Shown here in pieces: positions 16,520 to 26,766 of a stretch of DNA of 64,000 nt. Under the pieces are notes generated by a model. It was not told where the DNA came from and ran no database searches. It saw nothing but the letters and a program-made list of their open reading frames with translations. Source of the stretch: a virus; IMG/VR virus record IMGVR_UViG_3300045988_129166; one strand, given 5' to 3'. Made by a program: the position numbers and the translations under genes. Each line of letters opens with the position of its first letter. The stretch's first letter is position 1.

Positions 16520-16798
16520 ATGGGTAGATCGACAGAGTACTACAGGACTCATCCCGAAGCCAGGAAGAAAAAGGCTAAAAAAGACAAGGAGATAAATGCC
16601 AGACCGGAACAGAAAGCCAAACGCCGAGAGCTTGGTCGTAAAAACTACGAAACGGACAAGAAGAAGGGAAAGGGCTGGAGGAAAGGCAAGGATTGTTCTC
16701 ATACCAAGAACGGTCTTAGGTATAAATCAGTAAAAGCTAATAGGGGATCCAAATCGGATACGAAAGGTGACAAAAATGCAAGAGGAGATAGCAAATAG
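16520..16798 (+). CDS. Highly basic Lys/Arg-rich small protein (possible nucleic-acid binding)
   Basis: 92 aa; more than 35% K/R. Confidence 0.5.
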   Translation: MGRSTEYYRTHPEARKKKAKKDKEINARPEQKAKRRELGRKNYETDKKKGKGWRKGKDCSHTKNGLRYKSVKANRGSKSDTKGDKNARGDSK

Positions 16799-17900
16799 GA
16801 TAGATATAAGAAGGATATTCAAGACCTCTAAACAGGTTATGGAAGAGGCGTATGAGAATATATTGAAATACAGGCGGGGAGAGCTTATCCCCGCTAAAAC
16901 CGGATACGATTATATTGACGAAGCTTTACTTGGAGGTATTTTTCCTCAGCACGCTATTGCCATAGGAGCCCGGCCATCTGTAGGTAAATCGTATGTGGCC
17001 CAAAAGATATTGGAAAATGTGATGAATCCGATGATCAACCCGCAAGCAGAAGATTATTTTCTTGTTAATTGCGAGTTCGAAATGAATCCTCAAGATCTTC
17101 TTCTTCGTAGAATGAGCCAAGATATGAAAAAGCGAGCTCCTGAAATATTAAGAAGGCAAGATTCTAATACAGTAGAAGAGATGAGGATGTTTGAAATCCT
17201 TCAAGGTGAAATCAGGAATAATATAATATACATCGATGCTCCGTGTACGGTAAAAGAGTTTGAGGCGGCTGTGTATCATATAGCTACCAAACACAAAGAC
17301 AAACGTCTTATAATATTTAAAGTCGATCATATTGCTTTGATAAAAAGAATGGGGTTAGATCCTAAGTCGGCTATAGATGATTTGGTGGCGGTTATGAACG
17401 AAGCTAAATTAGTATATAAAAACATATTTTTCCTCATCATATCCCAATTCAACAGAGAGATAGAAGGAAGGATAAAAAGCCCACAAGAGCAGCCTCCGCG
17501 TCTTTCTGATTTTTACCAATCTGATACGCTGGGTCAGTTATGTACGTTAATGATAGGTTTGCACAATCCTCGTAGGTACGGGCTGGATAAGTATATGATA
17601 TTTGGGAAAGATTGGTATCAGACTCTTGATAGGTTTAAAACTGAAAACAAAACATCATTCAGGACAGCCGGACTTGTGTTTCATCATATACTGAAGGTAA
17701 GGCAAGTTAGTATGGAAGAGCTTACTAATACAATCCACCCAGAGATCCTGCCGGGACATGGATGGATGTACGGGGAGGGCGGGACGAAGTTCGTGAACCC
17801 CAACCAGCCGCCGACGCCTCCCAAGCTCTATACTGTGGAAGACGTTACGGACAATCAGGAACAAGAACAAGAGACAAAAGAAGAACAGTCATTGTATTAA
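16767..17900 (+). CDS. DnaB-like replicative helicase (RecA-fold C-terminal domain)
   Basis: Walker A GARPSVGKS matches DnaB GARPSMGKT; H2-like LIIFKVDHIALIK. Confidence 0.85.
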   Translation: MTKMQEEIANRIDIRRIFKTSKQVMEEAYENILKYRRGELIPAKTGYDYIDEALLGGIFPQHAIAIGARPSVGKSYVAQKILENVMNPMINPQAEDYFLVNCEFEMNPQDLLLRRMSQDMKKRAPEILRRQDSNTVEEMRMFEILQGEIRNNIIYIDAPCTVKEFEAAVYHIATKHKDKRLIIFKVDHIALIKRMGLDPKSAIDDLVAVMNEAKLVYKNIFFLIISQFNREIEGRIKSPQEQPPRLSDFYQSDTLGQLCTLMIGLHNPRRYGLDKYMIFGKDWYQTLDRFKTENKTSFRTAGLVFHHILKVRQVSMEELTNTIHPEILPGHGWMYGEGGTKFVNPNQPPTPPKLYTVEDVTDNQEQEQETKEEQSLY

Positions 17901-17914
17901 AAAAAATAAGAACC

Positions 17915-18517
17915 ATGAGACTAACAGTAGAAGAAAACGAATACCTGATAAGTAAGTTCCTTTTGGTTCTTACTGAGTTTGCAGGAGATGAAAGAGAGAT
18001 GTTTTTAATCAACTCCATACATGATAAGGCGGTGGCGGATATGAATTATCGTCTTCCGTCTTTAATAAGCAGAGAACGTAAAAGACGAGTTATTGAGCTC
18101 CTTAAAGAAGGAACCAGAATAATCAAGGACTTTTCCGGCTATGCAGGTGATATGGGTATGATTAACGAATACGATCGCCTAAAGAAAGAAATAGGAACCG
18201 TCCAAGACCAGCTTGGTGACGTAGAAGGTCAACTTCGGGCAGCAGGAGAAGTTATTAAAAAAGAACTTGATATGATTGCTGACCGAATCAAAGAAGATCT
18301 TCTTGATCGAGAACTGGCTAAAAGTAATGCCGAGGCTGAAAGAAAAGCCAAAGTAGATCCGAGATACGAAGTAGCTTTAGGTGATTACAAGGAGATGCTG
18401 GAAGTGATTTTTACAACCAGAAACAAGTATTCTACGGTAGATTCTGTACATGACGATCTTCGACAGTCGGTATCTACCGGTAGAAATTCGATTATTAAAG
18501 AAGGGTACAACAGTTAA
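17915..18517 (+). CDS. Coiled-coil hypothetical protein (start trimmed to the in-frame ATG at 17915)
   Basis: Track ORF 17762..18517 overlaps the DnaB-like gene by 138 nt; the first ATG lies after the upstream stop. Confidence 0.65.
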   Translation: MRLTVEENEYLISKFLLVLTEFAGDEREMFLINSIHDKAVADMNYRLPSLISRERKRRVIELLKEGTRIIKDFSGYAGDMGMINEYDRLKKEIGTVQDQLGDVEGQLRAAGEVIKKELDMIADRIKEDLLDRELAKSNAEAERKAKVDPRYEVALGDYKEMLEVIFTTRNKYSTVDSVHDDLRQSVSTGRNSIIKEGYNS

Positions 18518-18732: not shown

Positions 18733-19446
18733 ATGTACATCAATTTCAGACAACTTGCAGCATCAGACATGACTCCTAATGATCTGGCTAATCTTCTTGC
18801 CATAAGACAGAAGGATTCGGTTATGATCGAAGCCATGCCGGAGGAAGATGCTGGGAGGTATATAGAGCTTGGCCTGGTTGAGAAATTAAAATCAGGCGTG
18901 ATGAGATTGACCAACAAAGGAACGTCTTTTGTGAATTATATAGAGACACCGGAAATGACGGACGAGGTCCTGGAAACGTTGAAGATTATGATAGGAATGT
19001 ACGAATCATATTCAAAAGACATAGGTGTCAGTAGAAAAGAAGCGGAATCCAGATTGTGTTGGTTTATGGGTAACACCTCATTCAAGAAAGAGGTCATACT
19101 TCAGGTAACGGAATCTTATATAGCAGAGTCAGGAGATTATACAATGAGCTTATGTAACTTCATATGGAAACCGCCTTCTCAGGCTTTTTCAGTTCATATG
19201 AACCTTAAAAATTCAAAGCTCTTTGACTTAATAGCTGAAAAATTTAAGATCGCTACCGAGCCTTATTTGGAGTCTAAGAAGAATAAGGAAATGGATTGGT
19301 TGTTTGCCGTATCTAAATTGCCTACGCCGCCGGCTAAAGGCAATCCGGATTATTTGTTTACCGGAAGTTCTGAAACAGACAAAGAGCGATTGAAAAACAT
19401 AAAAACGTATTTGTTTAACAAAATTAGAAAGCAATGGAAAAAGTAA
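18733..19446 (+). CDS. Hypothetical protein (237 aa), first gene of the ACP/NfeD/flotillin operon
   Basis: ORF translationally coupled to the ACP-like gene (13-nt overlap). Confidence 0.7.
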   Translation: MYINFRQLAASDMTPNDLANLLAIRQKDSVMIEAMPEEDAGRYIELGLVEKLKSGVMRLTNKGTSFVNYIETPEMTDEVLETLKIMIGMYESYSKDIGVSRKEAESRLCWFMGNTSFKKEVILQVTESYIAESGDYTMSLCNFIWKPPSQAFSVHMNLKNSKLFDLIAEKFKIATEPYLESKKNKEMDWLFAVSKLPTPPAKGNPDYLFTGSSETDKERLKNIKTYLFNKIRKQWKK

Positions 19447-19685
19447 GAATCAGAAAGATAATAGAGGATATAATTATTACTCAGTTTCTTAATTCAGAAA
19501 TAGATATAGTTCATGAAGAAGATGTGTCGTTTAAAGAACTTGGATTAGATTCTGTTGATCAAATTGAACTGGAAGTGATGGTGGAACAAAAATTCAATAT
19601 TGTTATTATTGATTATGATATGGAGACCATCAAAGATATGACTGATCTTGTTTACAAAATAATAACAGAAGGATATGGGAAGTGA
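19434..19685 (+). CDS. Acyl carrier protein-like protein
   Basis: FKELGLDSVDQIELEVMVEQKFNI aligns with E. coli ACP [25 protein letters not shown], including the phosphopantetheine Ser in DS(L/V)D. Confidence 0.7.
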   Translation: MEKVRIRKIIEDIIITQFLNSEIDIVHEEDVSFKELGLDSVDQIELEVMVEQKFNIVIIDYDMETIKDMTDLVYKIITEGYGK

Positions 19686-20169
19686 CATAATTTTATGCAT
19701 GGCTTTAATAGCATCATTTGCTTTTGTTATACAGTTTTTGTTGTCGATATTAGGATCTGATCTGGATACGGATATTGACATTGACAGTGCTTCTGATTTA
19801 AGCATGTCTTTGTCGGACATCATATCATTCAAGGGCATAACACATTTTATTCTTGGATATAGCTGGACTACCTACTTTTCGGGTTCCCATTTAGTAGGGG
19901 TTGTGATAGGGTCGTTTTTCTTTATCGTTTTGTTTTACGTATATAAGTTACTTCTTAAGTTAAAACAAGAAATGGTGTACGAATGTCCGGAAGATTTAAA
20001 CGGAAAAGAAGTGGAGATAGTATTTAGATCAGGGAAGAATCATTATATGGTAAATATTTCGAAAAATGGAAGACAAGAGCAAATGAGAGTAAGATGCTTG
20101 TCTGGAAAAACCTACAAAAACGGCGACAAGGCGAATATAAAATATGAAGAAGGAGAATTAAGTATCTAA
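19675..20169 (+). CDS. NfeD/YqiJ-like membrane protein (TM N-terminus plus C-terminal OB-fold-like region)
   Basis: Hydrophobic N-terminal segments; C-terminal GKEVEIVFRSGKNHYMVNI; located immediately upstream of the flotillin gene, as in yqiJK / nfeD-floT operons. Confidence 0.6.
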   Translation: MGSDIILCMALIASFAFVIQFLLSILGSDLDTDIDIDSASDLSMSLSDIISFKGITHFILGYSWTTYFSGSHLVGVVIGSFFFIVLFYVYKLLLKLKQEMVYECPEDLNGKEVEIVFRSGKNHYMVNISKNGRQEQMRVRCLSGKTYKNGDKANIKYEEGELSI

Positions 20170-20200
20170 TTTTTTTATCAACAATTAAATTTTAAAAGTT

Positions 20201-21901
20201 ATGACAACAATCATGTACGTGTCAGCTATCTTAGCTGTAGTGATTATTTTGACAATCATCGGAGTCTTATCAAGGTATCGTAGATGTAAGCCTAATCAGG
20301 TCTTGGTCGTTTACGGTAAGACAGGTGGGGAAAAGAAGTCGGCGAAATTATATCATGGTGGAGCGGCATTCGTCTTGCCTATTATTCAAAGCTATGATGT
20401 TTTGTCAATGGAGCCTATGCAAATAGATTGCAAGCTTACCGGTGCTTTGTCATCTCAGAATATTAGAGTAGATGTACCTACGACCATTACAGTAGCTATC
20501 AGTACAAATCCCGAAATCATGCAAAATGCGGCAGAAAGACTTTTGGGGATGGATACCGAATCTACTGAAAATCTTATTACGGACATCGTTTACGGTCAGA
20601 TGCGTTTGATTATTGCTGAAATGACAATCGAAAAACTTAATTCTGACAGGGATGAGTTTTTGGATAAGGCAAGAAAGAACATTGATAACGAGCTTAACAA
20701 GTTAGGTCTTTACCTCCTGAACATCAACATCAGTGACATCAGAGACGAAGCAGGTTATATTATGAACCTTGGTAAGGAGGCTGAAAGTAGGGCTCTGAAC
20801 GAAGCACAAGCTAATATCGAAGAGCAGGAGAAGCTGGGTGCTATTAAGATTGCTGTACAGCAGAAGGAGAAAGAAACGGCTGTGGCTAATACCAAAAAAG
20901 AACAAGAGATTCAAATTGCTTGTACTGAAAAAGAAAAGGAAACGATAGTAGCTGAAACGAAGAAAGAAAAAGAAATAGCCTTGGCTTTAACCGATAAAGA
21001 GAAACAGATCGGCGTAGCTCAAGCAGATAGAGACAGGGCTGCGGTTATCGCAAAAACTTTAACCGACAAGGAATCGGCGATTGTAAGATCTAAGGCAGAA
21101 CTTGAAGTAAATAAAGCCGAGGCTGAAAGGATGGAAGAAGTCGGAAAGAATAAGGCTGAAGCTGACAAGGAAGCAGCTATAGCAATACAAGACTCTGAAG
21201 CTCAGATTAAGAAGGCTGAGGCTGAGAAAAATGCGTCTATAGGATACAACAATGCCCAGAAGGAGGTTGCTGTGTCAGTATCAGAACTACAGATTATCAA
21301 AGCTCAATCAGAAAAGAAGGCCGGAGAAGAAAAAGTTAAATCGGAAGCGGCTGTAAAAACGGCAAAAGAGCTTGCTGATAAAGAAGTGGAAGAAGCTAAG
21401 GCTAAGAAAGTTCAGGCTGCGCTTAAGGCTGAAAAGATTGTGCCGGCTGAAACCCAGAAGGAAGAGGCTATCTTACAAGCTGATGCCGAGGCCGAGAAGA
21501 TCAAACGCCGGGCTGAGGCTGAGGCAGCAGCACATTTGGCAAAAGCTGAGGCAGAGGCAAAAGCTATTCAGATGAAGCTGGAGGCAGAAGCCGAAGGTAA
21601 GAAAAAGTCGTTAATGGCAGAAGCCGACGGATTTAAGGCTATGGTGGAAGCAGCAGAATCCAATCCCCAGATCGCCATCCAGTACAAGATGGTTAATCAG
21701 TGGAAAGAAATTGCTGGAGAACAGGTTAAGGCGTTCGAGCACATCAATCTCGGAAATATCACGGTATTTGACGGTGGTCAAAACAGCACCGGTAATTTCC
21801 TTAACAATGTTGTTAAGGCCGTTGCTCCAGCGCTGGGAGTCATTGATCAGCTTCCGATTGCAGATACTTTAAAGAAGTTAAAAGGAGATGACAAAAAATA
21901 A
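20201..21901 (+). CDS. Flotillin-like SPFH/band-7 protein (YqiK/FloT-like) with long Ala/Glu/Lys-rich coiled-coil
   Basis: N-terminal TM; GGAAFVLPIIQSYDVLSMEPMQID matches FloT GGGTFVLPVFQQAEPLSL and YqiK GGALVLPVLHEIIPVNM; repetitive EAEAKA coiled-coil region. Confidence 0.85.
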   Translation: MTTIMYVSAILAVVIILTIIGVLSRYRRCKPNQVLVVYGKTGGEKKSAKLYHGGAAFVLPIIQSYDVLSMEPMQIDCKLTGALSSQNIRVDVPTTITVAISTNPEIMQNAAERLLGMDTESTENLITDIVYGQMRLIIAEMTIEKLNSDRDEFLDKARKNIDNELNKLGLYLLNINISDIRDEAGYIMNLGKEAESRALNEAQANIEEQEKLGAIKIAVQQKEKETAVANTKKEQEIQIACTEKEKETIVAETKKEKEIALALTDKEKQIGVAQADRDRAAVIAKTLTDKESAIVRSKAELEVNKAEAERMEEVGKNKAEADKEAAIAIQDSEAQIKKAEAEKNASIGYNNAQKEVAVSVSELQIIKAQSEKKAGEEKVKSEAAVKTAKELADKEVEEAKAKKVQAALKAEKIVPAETQKEEAILQADAEAEKIKRRAEAEAAAHLAKAEAEAKAIQMKLEAEAEGKKKSLMAEADGFKAMVEAAESNPQIAIQYKMVNQWKEIAGEQVKAFEHINLGNITVFDGGQNSTGNFLNNVVKAVAPALGVIDQLPIADTLKKLKGDDKK

Positions 21902-22118
21902 ATACAATGGCCCAAGGTTACACTTGGGCCTAATTGAAGAAATAAAAGCAGCATTTATAGATTTTATTCCAGCAGAAATAGTGATTTTTAGTGCTTTATT
22001 GATTAATATGTTTTTAATATGGATTTTGGGCAAGATTTAGAACCAGAAGAACTGACAGGACATTATGATCAGTGTTATGGAATTGATTTTGAAACAGAAG
22101 AAGAGGAGGATGAAGAAT

Positions 22119-22424
22119 ATGACTGACGAAGAATTTGCATTGGATAATAAGAAAAAGGTTGTTGTAAGAAAAAGAATATCTTATTTAAACAAAGGGGATA
22201 AAGTATGGATCGTGTCTTCCGACGGGTATCTGCTACACACGGACGTAGTTAGAGCCGAACGCGGACGGTCTTATGTGGATATAGACGGCATCCTGTATTG
22301 GAAGCGAGGATTAGATGGCAAGCATCGTAATCGTAATAACTACATGCAGTTTGCCATGACACCAGAAGACGGTAAGAAGTATGTCGTATATTACCCGGAA
22401 GGATTTAAAGACAATGACTTATGA
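22119..22424 (+). CDS. Hypothetical protein (start trimmed to ATG 22119 with AGGAGGA SD)
   Basis: GAGGAGGA sits 7 nt upstream of the in-frame ATG. Confidence 0.6.
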   Translation: MTDEEFALDNKKKVVVRKRISYLNKGDKVWIVSSDGYLLHTDVVRAERGRSYVDIDGILYWKRGLDGKHRNRNNYMQFAMTPEDGKKYVVYYPEGFKDNDL

Positions 22425-23440
22425 TGGTCCCGGAAACGCATTTGCTATATAAGGAGTTTAATGGCGTGAAACGTCTTGCCATTTCCTATTCCCAGATAGA
22501 TACGTTTCTTACTTGTCCAATGAAATGGTATAAGACTTATGTGGAAGGTAAAAGATCTACGGAAAAACAAGAAGCTACGTCTTATGGTACGGTTATTCAT
22601 AAGACACTGGAATACTTCTTCAAGAACGGAAGACAGCCTTCTGGTAAAGACCTTGGAGAAGCGATAAGTTACTATGCTTACCAAGAAGACATACCTTGGC
22701 AATCACCGGAAAATATGATGATAGCCATGAAGCAATCCGGGGAGCTTCTTGCTTGGATTGTGGATCTATTTAAAAAAGACGGCAATAGGTTTATGATAGC
22801 TGATAGTGATCTTAATCCCTGCGAGAAACTTATCAGGCACGGCGCCATAGTTGGAGTCGAAGAAGATTTTGTGCTGCCGTACCGTCTTCCTAAGCCTGTT
22901 GATATAAATGGGGTAATTCATACCCATGTGTACATAGTAGGATCAGTGGATCTTCATCTGGCTATAAAAAGCAAGAACGTAGTTCACCATTATGTCATAG
23001 ATTGGAAATCAGGGAATAAGGTTTTTGACTCTAAGAAGCTGGAAACGAATTTACAGCATCCTATATATTCATTTTACATCTATAGAAAATATGGTGGAGT
23101 TCTGCCAGATATGAACATCTATTTCTTTACCAGAACCAGGCAGTACCAAAAGGTTAAGGTAAATGAAGAGCGTAAAACAAAATCTATAGAAATGCTAAAT
23201 GACACTTTATCTAAAATGTATGATTTTGAAGATAATAGTGTAAAAACATTTCAGGCATACATCCAGGGAGCAGAAGGAGCCAGATATAGCAAGCGGCGTG
23301 CCACCCTAAGCCAACCTGTTTCGCAAAACAAGCTACCCTGCCCGTCGGCACTGTGTTATTATTGTGACTTTGGATTACATAACAAAAACGAATGCCCTTT
23401 CTCTTCGGATTGGGATCCGTCTAAAAAGATAAAGCGATGA
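22421..23440 (+). CDS. Cas4-like / RecB-family PD-(D/E)XK exonuclease with 1+3 Cys cluster
   Basis: N-terminal SYSQIDTFLTCPMKWY; motif III HHYVIDWKSG; C-terminal CYYCDFGLHNKNEC; Cys arrangement matches Cas4/AddB Fe-S nucleases. Confidence 0.8.
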   Translation: MMVPETHLLYKEFNGVKRLAISYSQIDTFLTCPMKWYKTYVEGKRSTEKQEATSYGTVIHKTLEYFFKNGRQPSGKDLGEAISYYAYQEDIPWQSPENMMIAMKQSGELLAWIVDLFKKDGNRFMIADSDLNPCEKLIRHGAIVGVEEDFVLPYRLPKPVDINGVIHTHVYIVGSVDLHLAIKSKNVVHHYVIDWKSGNKVFDSKKLETNLQHPIYSFYIYRKYGGVLPDMNIYFFTRTRQYQKVKVNEERKTKSIEMLNDTLSKMYDFEDNSVKTFQAYIQGAEGARYSKRRATLSQPVSQNKLPCPSALCYYCDFGLHNKNECPFSSDWDPSKKIKR

Positions 23441-23936: not shown

Positions 23937-24323
23937 ATGGAAAAGAAAGTTACAATCAAAGAAGGAATGGATATTTTTTACAAAAATGCAGGGAAAGGTA
24001 TATGGGTCTATATTGGACTTTTTGGAAATAAAGTACTATCCATTTTAAAAAACAAAGGTGTTATTGCATGCGAAAACGATGCTGAATATTGCGTGTTGAT
24101 GGATGGAGAAGATCATTTTATAAGTATAGCAAAAGACATGAGTCACGACTATTGTTGTGAGTACGTTGTAGAAAGAGCAGAAGCCTACAGAGACTACCCC
24201 TCCAAAGGTGCTACGTGCAGTGTATGCCTGTTTGAAGATAATGAGAATAAAGCAAGGGAGATGTTGAAAGAGGCGATAATAGAACTTTCAAAAAATAATA
24301 TAATAGATTGTGATGGGCTTTGA
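23937..24323 (+). CDS. Hypothetical protein
   Basis: 128-aa ORF. Confidence 0.6.
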   Translation: MEKKVTIKEGMDIFYKNAGKGIWVYIGLFGNKVLSILKNKGVIACENDAEYCVLMDGEDHFISIAKDMSHDYCCEYVVERAEAYRDYPSKGATCSVCLFEDNENKAREMLKEAIIELSKNNIIDCDGL

Positions 24324-26766
24324 ACTTAGACCTTACCAGAAAGAGGCAGTAGATGCCGGGCTTAAGTTTCTTACAGGAAGATCTAAGAAGCCTGGCATAA
24401 TCGTAGCTCCATGCGGATGTCATGCAAAAGGATACGGAATACTCATGTATGACGGGACAATAAAGAAAGTGGAGGATATTGTAGTTGGAGATAGGGTAAT
24501 GGGTGATGATGGAACCCCAAGAACTGTCCTGGAATTGCATAATGGAATAGATGACATGTATGAAATAAGACCTTTAAAAGGGAAGCCTTTTATCGTGAAT
24601 AAAGGCCATATAATGTCAATGTATAGATTAAAAGATAAACGAAAAGATGGTCCATCTATAGAAGAAGTAAGCATCGGGGAGTATATAAAATTTGCTCCTT
24701 ATCATAAGACGATTCTTAAGCTTAGAAGACCAAACGGTTTCGATTTTGAGGAATCTAAAAAGAATATGCCGTTAGATCCTTATTTTTTGGGATTGTGCCT
24801 TGGAGATGGCAGTATCACCTCCAGTCTTAGCATAACTACTCAACGACAAGAAATAGTAGAATATTTATATTCGTTTGTTAAGCAGTACAATATGTATATA
24901 AGAGTAGCAGAGAAGAAAGGAACTAACAATAAGTCAAAATCTTATTTTTTATCAAAAGGATGTGGAAGAGGTGGGAACCCTATAATAAATGCTATTAAAG
25001 ATATAGGATTATACAATAGAAAATCTGGTGATAAATTTATACCAATACAATATCTTACATCAAATAAAGAAAACAGATATAAACTATTAGCTGGATTTCT
25101 TGACACAGATGCTTATTATAATAAATCAGGAAAAGGGTATGAGTATTGCAGTAAATCTGAAACAATGATGAAACAATTTGTTTTATTGTGTAGAAGTTTA
25201 GGATTGTTATGTTCAGGATACTCATGTAAACTTGTTGATGGTGTAAAATATTATAGAACTGGAATATATGGAAATTTAGAGAATATACCCGTAAGGGTTG
25301 GTATAAGAAAAGGAGCCAATAGGATAATAAATAAAAATCCATATGTTGTTGGCTTCAAGGTAGAATATGTAGGAAAAGGAGAATATTATGGTTTTACAAC
25401 AGATGGGAATCATTTATATTTGGATGAGCAATGCTTTATTCATCATAATTCGGGAAAATCTTTAATAATATCCAAGATAGCACATGAAATAAATAGACCG
25501 ACATTAGTATTACAGCCCTCAAAAGAGATTCTGGAGCAGAATTATGCAAAGGCCGTATCATTCGGTTCTAAACCTACTATATATTCTGCTTCATGTGGTA
25601 TAAAGGAACTATCGGCTATGACTTATGCTACACTTAAAAGCATAAAGAAAGACGTAGCAAGGTTGAAAGATATAGGGATAGACACCTTATTGGTGGACGA
25701 ATGCCACTCGGGGTATTCCCCGGAGGAAGGTTCTGAATTTATGGAGTTTATGAGCGAGTTTCCCGAGGCGAAGGTACTGGGCTTCACCGCCACTCCCTGC
25801 CGCCTCCGAACCTACAGTTCCATGCTGGAAGGAAATTATAGCAAGCTCAATATGCTGACGAAAGACGAGCATAACTTCTTCAAGAAAATAGTTCATGTGA
25901 CTCAAATACAAGAACTAACCTCTCAAGGGTTTTGGTGTCCACTTAAGTACGAACGATGGTCGTTTGATGAATCGGCTCTGATGTTAAACAGTACCGGAGC
26001 CGAATACACCAACGAATCTATTAAAGAAAGTATTGTACGAAACGGCTTAAACAACTCTATCTACAAGCGCCTTCTTCAACTTATGAACGAGCGTAAAGCC
26101 ATTTTGGTTTGCATGGATTCTATCGAATCATGTAATAGAATATCAGAGTTCATGAATGCCAGGATGGGAGCCATAACCGGTGTCGTAACATCGCTAACAA
26201 CCAAAAAGAAAAGAGAGCAAATCATATCCGATTTCAAAGAAGGTAAGTTGAAGGTGGTTTTTAATTATTCAACGCTTGCTACCGGATTTGATTTTCCTGA
26301 ACTTGATTGTGTGATGTTTGGTCGACCAACTTTCTCATATTCAACTTATTACCAAATATTAGGCCGCGCCGTCCGCATCCATCCTGACAAGAAAGAGGCG
26401 CTGATAGTTGATTGCTGCGACAACATGAGACGCTTTGGTCGGATAGAAGACCTGACAATCGAGCAATTCCCTTCTAAGGGCTGGTGTATGTTTGCCGGCG
26501 ATCAACTTTTGTCTAATATAAGGATGGGTGATATTATTACCAAAGACGAGATCCTTCGTCGGGCAGCCTCGCTTAAATCTGTGAATAGAGATGGTAGGAG
26601 AGAAGACGATCTTGACAGCATAATAATGTGGTTTGGAAAATATGAAGGAATTAGATTCAAGGACATACCAGTGTCGTATTTTAGGTTCTTGGCTGAGAAT
26701 ATGGCAGTAAAACCAGGAGACAGGAAAGAAAAGATTATCGAATATTATAATAGAATAAAAGCATGA
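24310..26766 (+). CDS. SF2 DEAH-type DNA/RNA helicase containing an intein in motif I
   Basis: Motif I is split as APCG | intein | SGKS; motif II LVDECH; motif III TATP; motif VI QILGRAVR. Confidence 0.9.
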   Translation: MMGFELRPYQKEAVDAGLKFLTGRSKKPGIIVAPCGCHAKGYGILMYDGTIKKVEDIVVGDRVMGDDGTPRTVLELHNGIDDMYEIRPLKGKPFIVNKGHIMSMYRLKDKRKDGPSIEEVSIGEYIKFAPYHKTILKLRRPNGFDFEESKKNMPLDPYFLGLCLGDGSITSSLSITTQRQEIVEYLYSFVKQYNMYIRVAEKKGTNNKSKSYFLSKGCGRGGNPIINAIKDIGLYNRKSGDKFIPIQYLTSNKENRYKLLAGFLDTDAYYNKSGKGYEYCSKSETMMKQFVLLCRSLGLLCSGYSCKLVDGVKYYRTGIYGNLENIPVRVGIRKGANRIINKNPYVVGFKVEYVGKGEYYGFTTDGNHLYLDEQCFIHHNSGKSLIISKIAHEINRPTLVLQPSKEILEQNYAKAVSFGSKPTIYSASCGIKELSAMTYATLKSIKKDVARLKDIGIDTLLVDECHSGYSPEEGSEFMEFMSEFPEAKVLGFTATPCRLRTYSSMLEGNYSKLNMLTKDEHNFFKKIVHVTQIQELTSQGFWCPLKYERWSFDESALMLNSTGAEYTNESIKESIVRNGLNNSIYKRLLQLMNERKAILVCMDSIESCNRISEFMNARMGAITGVVTSLTTKKKREQIISDFKEGKLKVVFNYSTLATGFDFPELDCVMFGRPTFSYSTYYQILGRAVRIHPDKKEALIVDCCDNMRRFGRIEDLTIEQFPSKGWCMFAGDQLLSNIRMGDIITKDEILRRAASLKSVNRDGRREDDLDSIIMWFGKYEGIRFKDIPVSYFRFLAENMAVKPGDRKEKIIEYYNRIKA
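24418..25449 (+). other. Intein (344 aa) with LAGLIDADG homing-endonuclease domain
   Basis: Starts at Cys (CHAKGYGIL...) and ends ...HHN followed by Ser+1; LAGLIDADG blocks LGLCLGDGS and LAGFLDTDAY; removing it restores APCGSGKS (motif I). Confidence 0.85.

Follow-up and report, generated by a model that had tools for sequence, protein, structure and literature searches.

In bacteria, the genes for NfeD-type membrane proteins and flotillins form a conserved operon (nfeD-floA) whose products interact at the membrane and in which nfeD is positioned directly upstream of the gene for the SPFH protein (PMC11222466). The products of the Staphylococcus aureus nfeD-floA operon stabilise unfolded membrane proteins under stress without ATP (PMC11222466), and the flotillins of Bacillus subtilis are described as maintaining the fluidity of the membrane (PMC7360373). 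SPFH genes have been noted in phages before, and their role was described as unclear (PMC13239085); our survey of the literature found no study on the function of a phage flotillin or on a flotillin from Bacteroides. Here we analyse a gene pair of this type in a stretch of viral DNA of 64,000 nucleotides (IMG/VR virus record IMGVR_UViG_3300045988_129166), referred to in the following as the window. The pair consists of a gene for an NfeD-like membrane protein of 164 amino acids (aa) (19675..20169, + strand) and the gene for a 566-aa flotillin (20201..21901, + strand), and it is preceded by the genes for a 237-aa protein (p237; 18733..19446, + strand) and for an 83-aa protein related to acyl carrier proteins (ACPs; 19434..19685, + strand). 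A preliminary description of this DNA had grouped the four genes into one operon in which the NfeD/flotillin pair was fused to an ACP. Comparison with relatives splits this supposed operon into three unrelated layers, and the acquisition of the nfeD-like/flotillin pair is, overall, a rare but conventional capture of host genes.

The phage context of the locus is secure. Between positions 18000 and 23000, the window shares 96.7% nucleotide identity and an identical gene order with csAssE-Sib (OR575929.1), and the four genes reside within a csAssE-Sib-like replication module. csAssE-Sib is a complete, 151-kb epsilon crAss-like phage from the human gut for which the genus Epsilonunovirus has been proposed. 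The lineage to which the window phage belongs is abundant and widespread in human guts, and the epsilon crAss-like phages are without a cultured host. The OR575929.1 record already labels the three genes downstream of p237 as "acyl carrier protein", "transmembrane protein" and "flotillin family protein"; the published analysis of csAssE-Sib makes no mention of any of them.

On its domain matches, the 566-aa protein can be classified as a true flotillin. The Pfam model Band_7 (PF01145) covers its SPFH domain (residues 30-211) with an E-value of 7.6e-26 and 91.7 bits against a gathering score of 23.6, and the Flot model (PF15975) covers residues 450-559 (9.8e-10; 39 bits against a gathering score of 27). 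Two further elements can be read from the sequence: an N-terminal hydrophobic anchor at residues ~4-25 (IMYVSAILAVVIILTIIGVLS), which aligns with the anchors of the bacterial flotillins discussed below, and a coiled coil rich in A, E and K at residues ~215-450, ahead of the Flot domain. The closest solved structures are those of human flotillin-2 (7e-23) and flotillin-1 (5e-19), not those of stomatin or HflK/C. The protein had initially been addressed as a FloT/YqiK-like flotillin; while the flotillin assignment, the SPFH domain and the coiled coil hold up, it is not a FloT equivalog, as it reaches 143.8 bits with the NCBIfam model NF058507, for which the cut-off is 700. There was no match to this flotillin among the PHROG families, and 11 of 50,697 GenBank phage records yielded one, mostly short, unverified scaffolds. 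Flotillins are rare in phages. One of the unverified 'phage' scaffolds, MT836799.1 (L085), carries murA, a GNAT gene and, at its end, a Bacteroides-type NfeD-like gene, and it looks bacterial-chromosomal rather than phage-derived; several other GenBank 'phage' matches, the MT83xxxx entries named 'Bacteriophage sp.' among them, are short, unannotated and likely to be bacterial fragments.

The gene for the 164-aa protein is located directly upstream of the SPFH gene on the same strand, with a gap of 31 nucleotides. Its product is not recognised by curated sequence models: there was no match in Pfam, NCBIfam, PHROGs or PADLOC, and the Pfam NfeD model (PF01957) matched neither the phage protein nor its homologues from B. 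xylanisolvens and P. vulgatus at E<=1, with a single match (6e-5) among 71 scanned members of the family. According to an exhaustive HMMER search, this family comprises 243 representatives, most of them 160-180 aa long. The 164-aa protein combines three transmembrane (TM) helices with an acidic D-x-D-x-D loop and, at residues ~110-164, a C-terminal barrel of the OB-fold type, and the AlphaFold model, with a pLDDT of 61 overall and 73-80 for the C-terminal domain, places three TM helices ahead of a six-stranded barrel. This combination of TM helices with a C-terminal OB barrel resembles solved NfeD domains. When a profile built from 71 family members was compared with 177,635 PDB sequences, the first-ranking entry was YuaF, the NfeD partner of the B. 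subtilis FloT protein, at a marginal E-value of 0.054 and with a match that spans the whole OB domain; a profile built from four sequences found nothing. The Pfam models YqiJ_N and YqiJ_OB, both of which match the E. coli YqiJ protein, found no match in the phage family, and an hhalign comparison of the family with E. coli YqiJ was not significant (probability 2.7%, E 0.017), with aligned regions that are topologically equivalent. Predicted fold, genomic context and a marginal profile match, rather than any curated sequence model, therefore support the designation NfeD-like; as for the other half of the earlier label NfeD/YqiJ-like, the similarity to YqiJ is not significant.

A scan for potential donors, which covered one genome per bacterial species, revealed flotillins that are 63-66% identical to the phage protein over their full length at 29 loci from Bacteroides, Phocaeicola and related bacteria. 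At each of the 29 loci, the gene for a 165-177-aa homologue of the 164-aa protein (32-38% identity) is found immediately upstream of the flotillin gene, and at none of them was a homologue of the ACP-like protein or of p237 detected within 6 kb of it. B. xylanisolvens and P. vulgatus have different genes around the pair, which therefore behaves as an autonomous two-gene operon. In comparison with the P. vulgatus protein, the phage flotillin is 77% identical in the SPFH domain, 82% in the Flot domain and 52% in the coiled coil; its coiled coil is ~33 residues longer, and the C-terminal tail of the host protein is missing. The GC content of the phage flotillin gene is 42.8%, which lies between the 38.3% of the window and the 44.7-49% of the host genes. 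Neighbour-joining trees of the flotillin and of its partner are congruent, with the two phage lineages in which the pair occurs forming a monophyletic group that is sister to Bacteroides plus Phocaeicola. We infer from these comparisons that the whole operon was captured once from a Bacteroidaceae-like host and then underwent a long period of divergence. The preliminary description had named three outcomes that would speak against it, namely a lack of the ACP fold, a lack of the SPFH domain, or a recent pickup of host genes without conservation in relatives. None of these has come about outright; a pickup of host genes is indeed what the data point to, but it appears to be old and is maintained in relatives.

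IMG/VR contains 164 stretches that encode a relative of the window flotillin, and the four-gene block was scored in the best 80 of these 164. The 80 loci represent one species-level cluster, and divergent relatives were reached by a separate search of the encoding contigs. The four genes are present in the same order in 79 of the best 80 loci, the remaining one (L009) ending at a contig edge upstream of the ACP-like gene, and the same arrangement is found in a divergent lineage (L086) in which p237 is 76%, the NfeD-like partner 60% and the flotillin 82% identical. Conservation of the block thus extends to all 79 of the IMG/VR loci that span it and to one further lineage. Within the species-level population, the ratio of nonsynonymous to synonymous nucleotide diversity (piN/piS) is 0.05 for p237, 0.06 for the NfeD-like gene and 0.04 for the flotillin gene. 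None of 96 distinct p237 alleles and none of 82 distinct nfeD-like alleles are disrupted, and the six disrupted alleles among 84 for the flotillin comprise four nonsense alleles and two poly-A frameshifts. With a piS of 0.15-0.20, the nfeD-like and flotillin genes have taken up many synonymous changes, and their protein products have nevertheless been preserved. Purifying selection on the pair is thus strong and, judged from this pattern, the pair is functional, yet not indispensable in every genome.

The upstream gene of the block has a different history. The N-terminal part of p237 is a winged helix-turn-helix and its C-terminal domain is helical, and the protein is common to other crAss-like phages. 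Its homologues, down to 36% identity, are always found between DnaB and a PD-(D/E)XK nuclease or a helicase; in the window, these positions are taken by a DnaB-like helicase gene (16767-17900, + strand) and, as the downstream boundary of the slot, by the core replication-module genes for a 119-aa protein (p119) and a PD-(D/E)XK exonuclease (together 22065..23440, + strand; the exonuclease at 22421-23440, PDDEXK_1 1.2e-20). Relatives whose p237 proteins are 36-63% identical carry other cargo, or none, in the same slot. The interval between p237 and the nuclease is empty in L206, where p236 abuts the PDDEXK gene. In L204, p236 is followed by a 101-aa protein, which by eye resembles the window p119 (the resemblance is unscored) and is not an ACP, and then by PDDEXK. 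The interval contains proteins of 101 aa and 51 aa in L208 and of 105 aa and 176 aa in L122, all without family matches. In L119/L120 and L205, it is occupied by an ACP, a cytosine methylase and two radical-SAM proteins, and in the lineage of the window and in L086 by the ACP, the NfeD-like protein and the flotillin, plus short open reading frames (ORFs). No PD-(D/E)XK nuclease was seen in L121 and L207, in which p237 is succeeded by other genes ahead of the helicase. The short proteins encoded after p237 in L122 (105 aa) and L121 (65 aa) are not detectably ACP-like. As the position of p237 is constant and the genes that follow it are variable, p237 belongs to the core replication module and lies outside the membrane module, the slot is a hot spot for cargo, and the ACP represents a cargo distinct from the flotillin pair. 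Three evolutionary layers make up this mosaic region, namely the p237 core, the variable slot, and the ACP and nfeD-like/flotillin genes as its cargo.

Several observations on the slot and its surroundings can be added. In L119 (5675-8946) and L205 (5175-8456), the ACP has Asp in place of the serine and is accompanied by a cytosine-5 DNA methylase, two small ORFs and the two radical-SAM proteins, a content that may constitute a DNA- or metabolite-modification cassette. IS605/TnpB (Cas12f-like) elements occur at differing sites of the replication module in L120 (592-1812), L204 (6544-8128; here with a Y1 transposase as well) and L208 (from 9292), and csAssE-Sib carries two TnpB genes elsewhere in its genome. 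Directly downstream of the flotillin gene, a 50-aa ORF with a C-terminal TM helix (21888..22040, + strand) overlaps the flotillin stop by 14 nucleotides. It is annotated as hypothetical in csAssE-Sib, and L086 has a counterpart with 38% identity and the same 14-nucleotide overlap; no counterpart is present downstream of the host flotillins. Its GC content is 28.8%, and 13 of 32 alleles are truncated or disrupted. It is possibly a phage-specific third membrane component, a candidate whose reality as a gene is uncertain.

The 83-aa protein was correctly recognised at the outset as an ACP homologue that carries the serine of the DS(V)D motif. The Pfam PP-binding model (PF00550) matches it at 6.2e-6 with 26.8 bits against a gathering score of 20.8, Ser40 stands in the motif D39-S40-V41-D42, and the protein also matches PHROG 5934 'acyl carrier protein' (2.2e-8) and many ACPs in the PDB (about 1e-5); all NCBIfam ACP models stayed below their cut-offs. 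As a gene, it departs from its neighbours in several respects. Its GC content is 28.6%, compared with 38.3% for the window, its piN/piS of 0.36 is ~7-fold that of its neighbours, and premature stops or frameshifts interrupt eight of its 62 distinct alleles, with the genes on either side intact. Ser40 is kept in all 56 distinct IMG/VR ACP-like proteins. Among 111 cluster representatives of the same length, 26 have F, P, Y or A in its place, and several of these 26 are present on 9-20 contigs. In the L119 lineage, this position is Asp. Variation is concentrated on the serine motif and helix II (residues 39-51), within positions 19548-19625 of the window (codons 39-63). Targeting of this hot spot by a diversity-generating retroelement was considered and rejected: the changes are not confined to A but also affect T, C and G (S40->F/P/Y/A, V41->I/L/A, Q43->R), and the variation, not being adenine-specific, is therefore not driven by such an element. 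Positive selection is likewise unsupported, as piN/piS is 0.36-0.42 in all three segments of the gene and hence below 1. The more cautious interpretation of this pattern is a relaxed constraint, possibly accompanied by local diversification.

The annotation of the 151-kb csAssE-Sib genome contains no phosphopantetheinyl transferase (PPTase), ligase, synthase, acyltransferase, or fatty-acid or polyketide enzyme. A classical carrier role of the ACP-like protein is doubtful because there are no annotated biosynthetic partners, the serine is not conserved and the gene is often disrupted, and a carrier role linked to the flotillin is unlikely. The ACP-like protein, the product of an independent, dispensable accessory gene, probably does not cooperate with the flotillin pair. 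It may instead be a protein-binding decoy whose helix-II/serine surface is engaged in an arms race with the host, and such a role, if true, would explain the frequent natural knock-outs of the gene.

Taken together, we regard it as moderately probable that the region is a three-layer mosaic whose nfeD-like/flotillin pair was captured once, as a unit, and kept by selection, and that a scaffold made by the phage supports the membrane of the host cell. In this scenario, the phage would make its own flotillin during infection, alongside its replication genes. The protein and its cognate NfeD-like partner would then build SPFH-type scaffolds on the inner membrane of the host, with the SPFH and Flot domains of the flotillin mediating oligomerisation. 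These scaffolds would supplement the host flotillin, or co-assemble with it, and, by analogy with FloA-NfeD and FloT, might keep the fluidity of the membrane and the stability of membrane proteins adequate in an exploited Bacteroides or Phocaeicola cell. The strong purifying selection in a widespread gut phage suggests that a membrane-scaffold function probably matters during infection. The identities of the genes, the host origin and single capture of the pair, the selection that acts on it and the variability of the slot come from the comparisons made here. Several points weigh against the scenario as a whole. Expression of the pair, assembly of its products and a benefit to the phage are inferred only; the six disrupted flotillin alleles among 84 indicate that the gene is not essential in every genome; the donor scan proceeded by peptide patterns of the phage protein, by which closer donors outside Bacteroides and Phocaeicola could be missed; the trees are simple neighbour-joining trees without support values; and the 11-nucleotide overlap between the ACP-like and nfeD-like genes would allow their co-translation, which makes a functional link with the ACP possible.

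The main rival to a supporting role of the scaffold is interference, an explanation that we hold to be unlikely. Here, the phage pair would join or displace the host flotillin and thereby disable a membrane-associated process of the host, for example a defence, the signalling of envelope stress or a platform for proteases, or it would bring about superinfection exclusion by keeping out the DNA of other phages while the phage is carried over long periods. The domain pattern of the phage flotillin is compatible with this idea: the oligomerisation-bearing SPFH and Flot domains are 77-82% identical to those of the host, and the lengthened coiled coil has diverged and the tail is missing, as one might envision for a protein that joins host assemblies yet behaves differently there. 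Moreover, a repressor and antirepressors in epsilon crAss-like phages suggest persistent states that would favour exclusion (PMC11054128), and membrane-remodelling proteins of B. subtilis affect the outcome of phage infection (PMC8844932). However, the possession of its own NfeD-like partner under strong purifying selection fits an autonomous pair better than a poison subunit; a search for homology to anti-phage defence with PADLOC gave no meaningful match, and we found no known SPFH-based exclusion or anti-defence system in the literature. A related and rather improbable proposal views the pair as an active infection tool, in which a virus-built scaffold, either mixed with the host flotillin or assembled into cages of its own, would sequester or disable host membrane factors, or control the timing of lysis or superinfection; proteases and envelope-stress or abortive-infection effectors may be the factors so targeted. 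If true, this would represent the first functional viral SPFH system.

That all four genes form one integrated system, in which an acyl-loaded ACP and p237 would work together with the NfeD-like protein and the flotillin, for instance by acylating or lipid-loading the scaffold, appears to us very improbable. The layout that inspired the idea is as originally described, with four ORFs on the + strand and overlaps of 13 nucleotides between the p237 and ACP-like genes and of 11 nucleotides between the ACP-like and nfeD-like genes; the third junction is the 31-nucleotide gap ahead of the flotillin gene, so that at most two of the three junctions can be translationally coupled and the coupling of all four genes does not stand. 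The co-conservation of the four genes in two phage lineages and the presence, in the window ACP, of a DSxD serine and of a passing Pfam PP-binding match are also in keeping with a joint system. Against it, the host operon consists of the two membrane genes only, without the ACP or p237 nearby at any of the 29 Bacteroidaceae loci. p237, a winged helix-turn-helix protein common to other crAss-like phages, is found in relatives without flotillin, and the ACP stands elsewhere beside a DNA methylase and two radical-SAM genes, in place of the flotillin. Furthermore, the ACP differs from its neighbours in base composition, constraint, frequency of inactivation and loss of the serine, and the csAssE-Sib annotation lacks a PPTase as well as any enzyme for acyl loading. 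The notion that the pair is neutral passenger DNA, or an artefact of assembly or contamination, might draw on the host origin of the flotillin, its few nonsense alleles and the likely bacterial nature of several short, unverified GenBank 'phage' matches, but it is effectively refuted by the phage replication genes that flank the pair in a complete 151-kb genome and in 164 IMG/VR contigs, by its occurrence in lineages whose flotillins differ by 18%, and by a piN/piS of 0.04-0.06 at a piS of 0.15-0.20.

Some features of the wider replication module deserve mention. A scan of the block for promoters and terminators, which employed a sigma-70 consensus unsuited to Bacteroides, gave no enrichment over shuffled sequences, and it found no + strand terminator within the block. 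Upstream of p237, a 251-aa ORF (17762-18517) overlaps the DnaB-like gene by 139 nucleotides; only its last ~205 residues are conserved in many related loci, and its true start is therefore probably an internal Met (around MRLTVEENEY...). Downstream of the exonuclease gene, an SNF2-type (SNF2/ResIII) helicase of 818 aa (24310-26766, + strand), likewise a replication gene, carries an intein, with a Hom_end_hint match of 9.4e-18 at residues 37-87 and weak LAGLIDADG matches. The csAssE-Sib orthologue of this helicase has only 473 aa and thus lacks the intein; Hint/intein signals are found in the same helicase of the relatives L122/L123 and L207. Both GC skew and AT skew change sign near position ~32000 of the window, which is consistent with the switch from the + strand replication module to - strand genes in the csAssE-Sib annotation.

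The gene names in GenBank and the existence of phage-encoded SPFH genes were already known. New in this analysis are the NfeD-like assignment of the partner protein, the Bacteroidaceae origin of the pair as a two-gene unit, the evidence for purifying selection, the separation of a supposed four-gene operon into three layers, and the decay-prone, serine-variable nature of the ACP. The main practical value lies in host linkage, since a two-gene operon whose closest relatives found reside in Bacteroides and Phocaeicola chromosomes provides direct genomic evidence for a Bacteroidaceae host, and it can thus serve as a marker for an uncultured, abundant group of gut phages. The pair also offers a natural, minimal NfeD-flotillin system with which to probe scaffolds that are still poorly understood. 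In addition, the locus is a reminder that, in a phage genome, close gene spacing and stop codons that overlap the next gene are not sufficient grounds for assuming a functional operon.

When viewed against described systems, the phage pair follows the layout of B. subtilis yuaF-floT, S. aureus nfeD-floA and E. coli yqiJ-yqiK, in which the gene for a small TM/OB-barrel protein comes first and, a short gap further on, that for a flotillin composed of N-terminal anchor, SPFH domain, EA-rich coiled coil and Flot domain. Unlike these bacterial operons, it is virus-encoded and resides inside a replication module, the Pfam NfeD and YqiJ models fail to recognise its divergent partner protein, and its flotillin differs from that of the host by a longer coiled coil and the lack of the C-terminal tail. 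The window helicase differs from that of csAssE-Sib by its intein. The ACP resembles the phage ACPs of PHROG 5934 in being a small, acidic protein with the PP-binding fold and a DSxD motif; it departs from a classical carrier by the lack of annotated biosynthetic partner genes, by its variable serine and by the frequent disruption of its gene. As a host-derived, non-structural and non-replicative element that is selectively maintained in a variable slot, the pair is akin to the 'morons' of phages. Other SPFH genes known from phages are the flotillin gene of Vibrio phage KIT04 and the gene for an SPFH lipoprotein of Schitoviridae GIB1. KIT04 (L209 2680-4350), a T5-like phage, encodes a 473-aa flotillin (Band_7 4.6e-24) that is 29% identical to that of the window, and this flotillin is directly preceded, as in the window, by a small TM protein, which in KIT04 comprises 82 aa with two TM segments and an acidic loop and is devoid of an OB domain. 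KIT04 seems to have acquired its flotillin and small membrane partner independently. What sets the present locus apart, both from the morons and from the other SPFH genes of phages, is that a complete two-gene host operon has been taken, and that this happened in a lineage abundant in human guts.

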